Virus record (IMG/VR): IMGVR_UViG_2713896788_000030 | Origin: a virus | Taxonomy: Duplodnaviria; Heunggongvirae; Uroviricota; Caudoviricetes | Strand: one strand, 5' to 3' | DNA: 5,751 nucleotides | Shown: one piece after another, positions 1 through 459 of the stretch | How positions within the stretch are numbered: the first letter of the stretch is position 1 | Layout: every line of letters begins with the position of its first letter | Translations under genes and position numbers: made by a program | The notes under the pieces: generated by a model | Seen by the model: only the letters and a program-made list of their open reading frames with translations | What the model was told of the DNA's origin: nothing | Database searches by the model: none

Positions 1-459
1 TTTTCTTTTTTCTTTTGTAATAGTGTCTTTTGTGTCCCCCTGTTTTGAGGGATAGCAATCCCCTAATTTGAGGGATGTTTTATCCCTCGTTTTAGGGGAT
101 TTTCCCTCGTTTTGAGGGATGTCCCTCATTTTAGGGGAACCTCCCTCGTTTTGAGGGATGCACCATTCTGAGATGTTTTTATTTGGTCCAAACATGCCGC
201 CTTGCTGCTTGATAATATTCATTNNNNNNNNNNNNNNNNNNNNNNNNNNNNNNNNNNNNNNNNNNNNNNNNNNCCCATAGGTTTTACGCAGAATGGCAAG
301 CAGCACTTTAAACTGTCGCTTGGTCAGATCTGCGCCTGAATAAGCCTCAATCAGCATATTTGATAGTCTGGCGTAACCATCATCGAGATCTGCCACATTA
401 CGCTCCTGTTCGGCAAAGTTACCTCTGCCGAAGTTGAGTATTTTTGCTGTATTTGTCAT
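1..459 (-). CDS. O: Replication initiator O, N-terminal part; the gene runs off the left edge of the window and is interrupted by the N run at 224-273
   Basis: Reverse-complement translation from the ATG at 459-457 gives MTNTAKILNFGRGNFAEQERNVADLDDGYARLSNMLIEAYSGADLTKRQFKVLLAILRKTYG, which matches my recollection of the lambda O N-terminus. After the gap the frame resumes with MNIIKQQGGMFGPNKNISEWCIPQNEG and continues through the iterons. The six-frame track missed it because the N run breaks the ORF. Confidence 0.88.
   Translation of the reverse strand, partial: MTNTAKILNFGRGNFAEQERNVADLDDGYARLSNMLIEAYSGADLTKRQFKVLLAILRKTYGXXXXXXXXXXXXXXXXXMNIIKQQGGMFGPNKNISEWCIPQNEGGSPKMRDIPQNEGKSPKTRDKTSLKLGDCYPSKQGDTKDTITKEKRK
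35..159. repeat. Origin of replication (ori-lambda type): six tandem ~18-19 bp iterons (O-protein binding sites) lying inside the O coding sequence, with an A+T-rich stretch at 1-34
   Basis: Directly seen tandem copies of the dyad motif TCCCTCGTTTTGAGGGAT and variants at about 35-53, 58-76, 83-100, 103-120, 122-138 and 142-159. Each is an imperfect inverted repeat (TCCCTC ... GAGGGA). A pyrimidine-rich tract ttttcttttttcttttgtaatagtg adjoins them. Confidence 0.85.
224..273. other. Run of 50 N (assembly gap or masked bases) inside the O gene
   Basis: Fifty consecutive n characters. The flanking O residues (…ILRKTYG on one side, MNIIKQQ… on the other) suggest about 30 codons are missing, so the gap is probably a fixed-length placeholder rather than true size. 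Confidence 0.95.

Follow-up and report, generated by a model that had tools for sequence, protein, structure and literature searches.

A six-iteron replication origin of the lambda type, in the form found in Shiga toxin phages, within gene O of a lambdoid early region

The lambdoid early region and its iteron array

We analyzed a stretch of viral DNA of 5,751 nucleotides (IMG/VR record IMGVR_UViG_2713896788_000030), which is referred to here as the window and which represents a lambdoid early region oriented opposite to the direction customary for lambda. Beyond cI, the genes follow in the order N, sieB, ea10/ssb, cIII, kil, gam and the start of bet (Table 1). The P gene, which is present in the nearest relatives VT1-Sakai and NZ_CP133131.1 and is expected directly downstream of O, is placed beyond the start of the window. 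Judging from the transferred position of the pR promoter, rightward transcription from pR probably passes cro, cII and O into the origin. A consensus scan revealed a promoter-like site and a strong intrinsic terminator that together delimit an oop-like antisense unit over the beginning of O and the last part of cII, which we take to correspond to the position of the lambda pO/oop antisense RNA. The only match obtained with an Rfam scan of the window was the cIII RNA thermometer; there was no oop match in the window and no match at the origin. An open reading frame for 93 aa, located between cI and the H0053 homologue, is unannotated in VT1-Sakai and was designated as the hypothetical protein WP_001280993.1 by RefSeq in NZ_CP133131.1.

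Table 1. Features of the origin and the surrounding early region. Positions are those of the window. Gene positions were transferred from the VT1-Sakai annotation by alignment offset. The 18-bp iteron coordinates follow the GenBank convention, and the 17-nt sequences in O sense are listed separately with their own positions. Iteron numbers are those of 933W.
Feature	Position	Strand	O-sense 17-nt sequence (position)	Basis and remarks
AT-rich unwinding tract, first 35 bp	1..35	-		in O sense, follows the last iteron immediately; truncated at window start
5' part of replication initiator gene O	1..459	-		ATG at 459-457; translation checked against the O proteins of lambda, VT1-Sakai and 933W; continues past window start
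Origin array	36-159	-		six imperfect-dyad iterons of 17-18 bp each
Iteron 6 (lambda ITN4)	36..53	-	TCCCTCAAAACAGGGGG (36-52)	100% identical to the misc_binding feature 'ori iteron 6' in GenBank AF125520 and AP000400; adjoins AT-rich tract
Iteron 5 (lambda ITN3)	59..76	-	TCCCTCAAATTAGGGGA (59-75)	GenBank annotation and alignment; Stx-type G-to-A substitution
Iteron 4 (lambda ITN2)	83..100	-	TCCCCTAAAACGAGGGA (83-99)	GenBank annotation and alignment
Iteron 3 (lambda ITN1)	103..120	-	TCCCTCAAAACGAGGGA (103-119)	GenBank annotation and alignment
Iteron 2 (extra; 1' in Kozlowska et al. 2020)	122..139	-	TCCCCTAAAATGAGGGA (122-138)	no lambda counterpart in alignment; 'ori iteron 2' in 933W and VT1-Sakai
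Iteron 1 (extra; 1'' in Kozlowska et al. 2020)	142..159	-	TCCCTCAAAACGAGGGA (142-158)	GenBank annotation and alignment
39-bp two-iteron unit, present twice in tandem	83-121 and 122-160	-		repeat finder family D1, 35/39 identical (90%); 39-bp gap in lambda
Run of exactly 50 N inside O	224..273			all relatives examined have 98 bp here (O residues 63-95)
Promoter-like site (TTGAGT-17-CATAAT, upstream TG)	434-462	+		consensus scan
oop-like unit	434-543	+		antisense to O start and cII end
cII	492-788	-		VT1-Sakai annotation transfer
Strong intrinsic terminator	516-543	+		consensus scan
cro	903-1121	-		VT1-Sakai annotation transfer
pR promoter and oR operators	1152..1220	-		transfer from VT1-Sakai, by homology
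cI	1239-1877	+		VT1-Sakai annotation transfer
93-aa open reading frame	2000-2281	+		RefSeq WP_001280993.1
Lambda_thermo (cIII RNA thermometer)	4911-4969	+		full-length Rfam match with 88.5 bits, at the beginning of cIII
cIII	4924-5088			

The initial annotation had counted six O-binding iterons inside the coding sequence of O, and six sites are indeed present at this place. The misc_binding features 'ori iteron 1' to 'ori iteron 6' of 933W (AF125520) and VT1-Sakai (AP000400) fall exactly on these bases. The iterons are arranged in tandem in the middle of O at intervals of approximately 20-24 bp (start-to-start spacings of 20, 19, 20, 24 and 23 bp), and the last of them is directly followed by the AT-rich tract, of which 35 bp are visible in the window. 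A formal count with repeat-finding programs, which the initial annotation had proposed as a check, recovered both the array and its two-iteron unit of 39 nt: the repeat finder placed five of the six iterons in one family, and TRF reported a period of 39 with 2.0 copies and 89% matches at 83-160. A consensus search allowing at most three mismatches detected five sites, compared to 0.03 expected from 200 shuffles. The sixth site, at 59-75, has four mismatches to the consensus and was recovered by the repeat finder and a regular expression. The sequence of iteron 1 is the same as that of ITN1, and iteron 2 is a diverged copy of ITN2. The repeats had been described as being of the TCCCTC-N6-GAGGGA type. 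Perfect arms of this type occur in only two of the six sites (103-119 and 142-158), and the 6-nt arms are separated by 5 nt instead of 6. An IUPAC pattern built on the 6-nt spacer caught only four sites.

A cognate O protein is encoded around the iterons. Residues 1-62 and 96-169 of O, including 13 extra residues, can be read in the window and match the O proteins of lambda and the Shiga toxin (Stx) phages, while residues 63-95 are hidden behind the run of N and the C-terminal part of O falls outside the window.

Comparison with lambda and Shiga toxin phages

To compare the origin with that of lambda we used the record NC_001416, which annotates four iterons (39034-39118) and an ori (39034-39160), in agreement with the number given in the initial annotation. 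Alignment with lambda, 933W and VT1-Sakai showed that the origin of the window equals that of lambda apart from one 39-bp insertion, comprising two iterons or 13 codons, and a single G-to-A substitution in ITN3 (AAATTAGGGGA in the window versus AAATTGGGGGA in lambda). The insertion is placed on the O-N-terminal side of ITN1, and its flanks are unchanged. Likewise, the AT-rich tract at 1-35 is identical to lambda 39119-39153 and to the corresponding sequences of 933W and VT1-Sakai. The sequences of ITN1, ITN2 and ITN4 and the location inside O are also the same as in lambda, the O protein of which is 99% identical to this type of O outside the insertion. Because the array sits inside gene O, the 39-bp duplication also provides the O linker with 13 residues, IPQNEGGSPKMRD, a near-copy of the segment IPQNEGKSPKTRD that follows it in O. 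An added repeat in the O linker region, as had been anticipated from the extra iterons, can be read directly in the translation of the window. The O protein has 312 aa in Stx phages versus 299 aa in lambda, the difference being this insertion, and besides IPQNEGGSPKMRD the window translation contains the Stx-type substitutions G17E and L37I (E17, I37).

As the initial annotation had mentioned, expanded iteron sets have been reported for Stx-type lambdoid phages. Positions 1-223 of the window are 100% identical to 933W, H-19B, VT1-Sakai (Sp15), Stx2 phage I, BP-4795, P27, P22, P32 and many Stx1a phages. The window shares with 933W, P27, H-19B and VT1-Sakai the six iterons, their spacings, the AT tract, the 13-aa insertion in O and G17E/L37I. 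Over its full length, it shares 99.6% identity with the Stx1 prophage VT1-Sakai, from which it differs by 20 substitutions and one 1-bp indel, outside 1-223, and by the 50-N placeholder in O. The nearest relatives of the window include the Stx1 phages VT1-Sakai and phiSTEC801-Stx1a, and the closest is NZ_CP133131.1 from an O157:H7 strain (8 mismatches in 5478 bases). This circular record of 63,329 bp, which was deposited as 'plasmid unnamed2', bears a full lambdoid early region and may represent an excised or replicating phage genome that was assembled apart. The 5751 bases of the window do not include an stx gene, and the label Stx phage is applied to it because its nearest relatives are Stx phages. 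It should be noted here that STEC genomes often contain 2-4 copies of this origin, and a given copy therefore need not sit on an stx-bearing prophage.

The six-iteron origin is already known: the GenBank records of 933W and VT1-Sakai annotate it, and it had been dissected biochemically by 2020. The replication regions of Stx phages were described as having six iterons versus four in lambda, an O protein with 13 more residues, a one-base difference in iteron 3 ('iteron 3 prime') and the O substitutions G17E/L37I, plus S282G in 933W (Kozlowska et al. 2020, PMC7466680). For the first comparison of six with four iterons, PMC7466680 gives credit to Nejman et al. 2009; for the physiological differences, it cites Nejman et al. 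2011. The differences from lambda that Kozlowska et al. 2020 list are those seen in the window, namely the two added iterons (39 bp), the 13 added O residues together with G17E/L37I, and the one-base change in iteron 3. The presence of six iterons is thus a correct but ordinary observation, which matters little for this window.

Both forms of the origin are common. The six-iteron form was found in 72 phage records that match the full 223 bp at at least 99% identity, and the four-iteron form, with a span of 184 bp, in 59 phage records including lambda, 21, 434, SfI and HK140; a few Salmonella phages in the phage collection were more distant. Among complete E. coli sequences, the prevalence of which was sampled through BLAST identity bands, the six-iteron form was present in 364 records (at least 99% identity) and the four-iteron span in 959. 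We also fetched 234 IMG/VR loci by two conserved patterns, with each exact-pattern scan matching more than 120 lambdoid contigs, and in these loci a count by regular expression gave complete arrays of four (n = 54), six (n = 17) and eight (n = 1) iterons as well as a few damaged arrays. An exact copy of the window was absent from these contigs, as were runs of N.

Origin function and iteron number

Replication from the lambda origin involves formation of the O-some, destabilization of the AT tract and P-mediated loading of DnaB. By analogy with lambda and with the identical sequence of 933W/P27, O dimers bound to the imperfect dyads in the window would form an O-some in which the DNA is wrapped, the AT-rich DNA beside the array would be destabilized, and P would then bring the host DnaB. 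Strong occupancy in the six-iteron form would be expected for the four iterons closest to the AT tract (36-120), and the two distal iterons (122-159) would be weakly bound and yet support establishment of the replicon.

The expectations for the six-iteron form derive from EMSA, DMS footprints and plasmid transformation published for 933W/P27 (PMC7466680), the GenBank records of which are 100% identical to window 1-223. Strong protection by any O protein was limited to the four iterons adjoining the AT-rich tract, the distal iterons 1' and 1'' were weakly bound in vitro, and the Stx O proteins bound more weakly than lambda O (PMC7466680). The extra two iterons were nevertheless required for plasmid establishment, and the Stx-type replicon was less dependent on transcriptional activation and DnaA than that of lambda (PMC7466680). 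The suggestion in the initial annotation that extra iterons affect initiation is in line with these published results.

We regard positions 1-159 as the origin of a lambda-type (O/P) replicon in its Stx-phage form (probability approximately 0.97). It consists of a four-iteron array with a tandem duplication of the 39-bp ITN1-ITN2 unit on the side facing the beginning of O, and the AT tract comes after the array, while the N run is an unrelated placeholder. Binding of O to this copy and its firing would proceed as published for the identical sequence. Alternatively, the extra two iterons could be functionally neutral, having merely come with an in-frame duplication that the O linker tolerates, with the origin working as a four-iteron lambda origin. 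This would fit the strong footprint on only four iterons, on four- and six-iteron templates alike (PMC7466680), the tolerance of lambda to the loss of one iteron (Moore 1981, cited in PMC7466680) and the drift of the iteron copy number among relatives (4, 6 and 8). However, a P27-derived plasmid no longer transformed once iteron 1 and/or 1' (as named there) was disrupted (PMC7466680), and the six-iteron form is kept at 100% identity across many independent Stx phages, which makes a neutral duplication rather improbable. The properties of the Stx-phage form are of wider relevance since the replication of Stx phages drives Shiga toxin gene dosage and expression, and the six-iteron origin with the longer O has been reported to differ from lambda in its response to host factors and starvation.

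Arrays with other iteron numbers were also observed. In E. coli 03_3013 (L238 2501-2761 = NZ_CP074958.1 3904136-3904396), eight iterons are present, which are the same iterons and the same 39-bp unit as in the window with one more copy of the unit. The O gene of this strain is intact at 978 bp and would encode 325 aa. The eight-iteron form is rare, with one full-length match among 5426 complete E. coli genomes, and no report of this allele was found in the literature searched, the coverage of which was incomplete. A second eight-iteron array is located at 10126-10287 of L124 (IMGVR_UViG_2695420596_000008). At 10323-10352 of the same contig, the AT-rich tract of the origin runs straight into TGAACCGCCCCGGGAATCCTGGAGACTAA, where the contig ends; we presume that TGAACCGCCCCGGGAATCCTGGAGACTAA resembles the terminal repeat of an IS629/IS3-family element inserted in the origin. 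A five-iteron variant, resulting from a 23-bp tandem duplication of ITN3, was found in E. coli ERL06-2442 (L239 1201-1407 = NZ_CP032801.1 4459269-4459475), the O gene of which is marked as a frameshifted pseudogene by RefSeq. The O157:H7 strain Z1830 (NZ_CP062713.1) gave the same BLAST hit row as ERL06-2442 and, judging from this hit, apparently carries five iterons too.

These variants fit a simple constraint: as the iterons are part of a coding sequence, a working initiator would be retained only with steps that preserve the reading frame, such as the 39-bp pair. It is conceivable, and we suggest this tentatively, that the iteron number in lambda-type origins is a live polymorphism limited to frame-compatible steps, where the unit of 39 bp or 13 codons leads to 4, 6 and 8 iterons with an intact O, and the 23-bp step to an O pseudogene. 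If this were true, the six-iteron state of the window would be the common middle allele, and if the copy number tunes O-some stability and replication, toxin output could be affected.

The run of 50 N in gene O

The run of N that had been noticed near the array is real, and it begins 64 bp beyond the array. The distance between its flanks was 98 bp in 55 of 55 fetched loci holding both flanks, and likewise in 933W, VT1-Sakai and the nearest relative. On the plus strand, the 98-bp segment reads CTGACGAGTTCTAACTTGG...GGTTTATTCCA; it has a GC content of 42% and no 10-mer in common with window 1-223, including the array. Since the array is base-perfect and the missing 98 bp are unique, the gap is a fixed-length placeholder and not a symptom of the iterons. 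The proposal in the initial annotation that the repeats had caused an assembly problem is therefore not supported: the array is identical to that in finished genomes, and the gap lies apart from it. The segment of O up to about 464 is common to Stx1 and Stx2 prophages and would trouble short-read assemblers. As a cause of the gap, this repetition of O between prophages (2-4 copies per STEC genome) is doubtful, because the gap is located inside the shared segment and not at its boundary near 465.

The difference between 98 and 50 is 48, a multiple of three, and a naive translation of O consequently remains in frame across the gap, which could mislead gene callers into a shortened 'intact' O.

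The same numbers could be taken to mean that the DNA-binding domain of O has really lost 48 bp in frame and that this deletion is masked by the N run, such that the six-iteron origin would be combined with a defective initiator in a decaying prophage. There are indeed 50 N in place of 98 bp, and 48 is divisible by three, but a multiple of three arises by chance in one of three cases, and placeholders typically consist of a round number of N. Moreover, the flanks are invariably 98 bp apart in the 55 loci, and a flank spacing of 50 bases was absent from contigs in viral, genome and metagenome collections when searched with an exact pattern, which a stored literal N may escape. A real 48-bp deletion is thus unlikely, and we consider a decaying prophage with a defective initiator to be very improbable. 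Taken as a placeholder, the N run is best filled with the 98 bp found in all relatives.

The idea that the six-copy array itself is an assembly artefact, that is a repeat mis-expanded in a poor region, deserves practically no credence: although the gap is so close and damaged arrays do occur in draft contigs of relatives, such as L039, window 1-223 is the same, base for base, in 72 independent phage records and in 364 records of complete E. coli sequences (counted above at at least 99% identity), including finished genomes, and the missing 98 bp share no 10-mer with it. In practical terms, the check was negative in that the array is not mis-assembled. In the draft IMG/VR contig L039 (minus strand, 7090-7300), the array is collapsed and contains homopolymer indels, which are likely due to a sequencing or assembly error. 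In another draft IMG/VR contig, L081 (minus strand, 10224-10300), unrelated DNA cuts the array after the third iteron.
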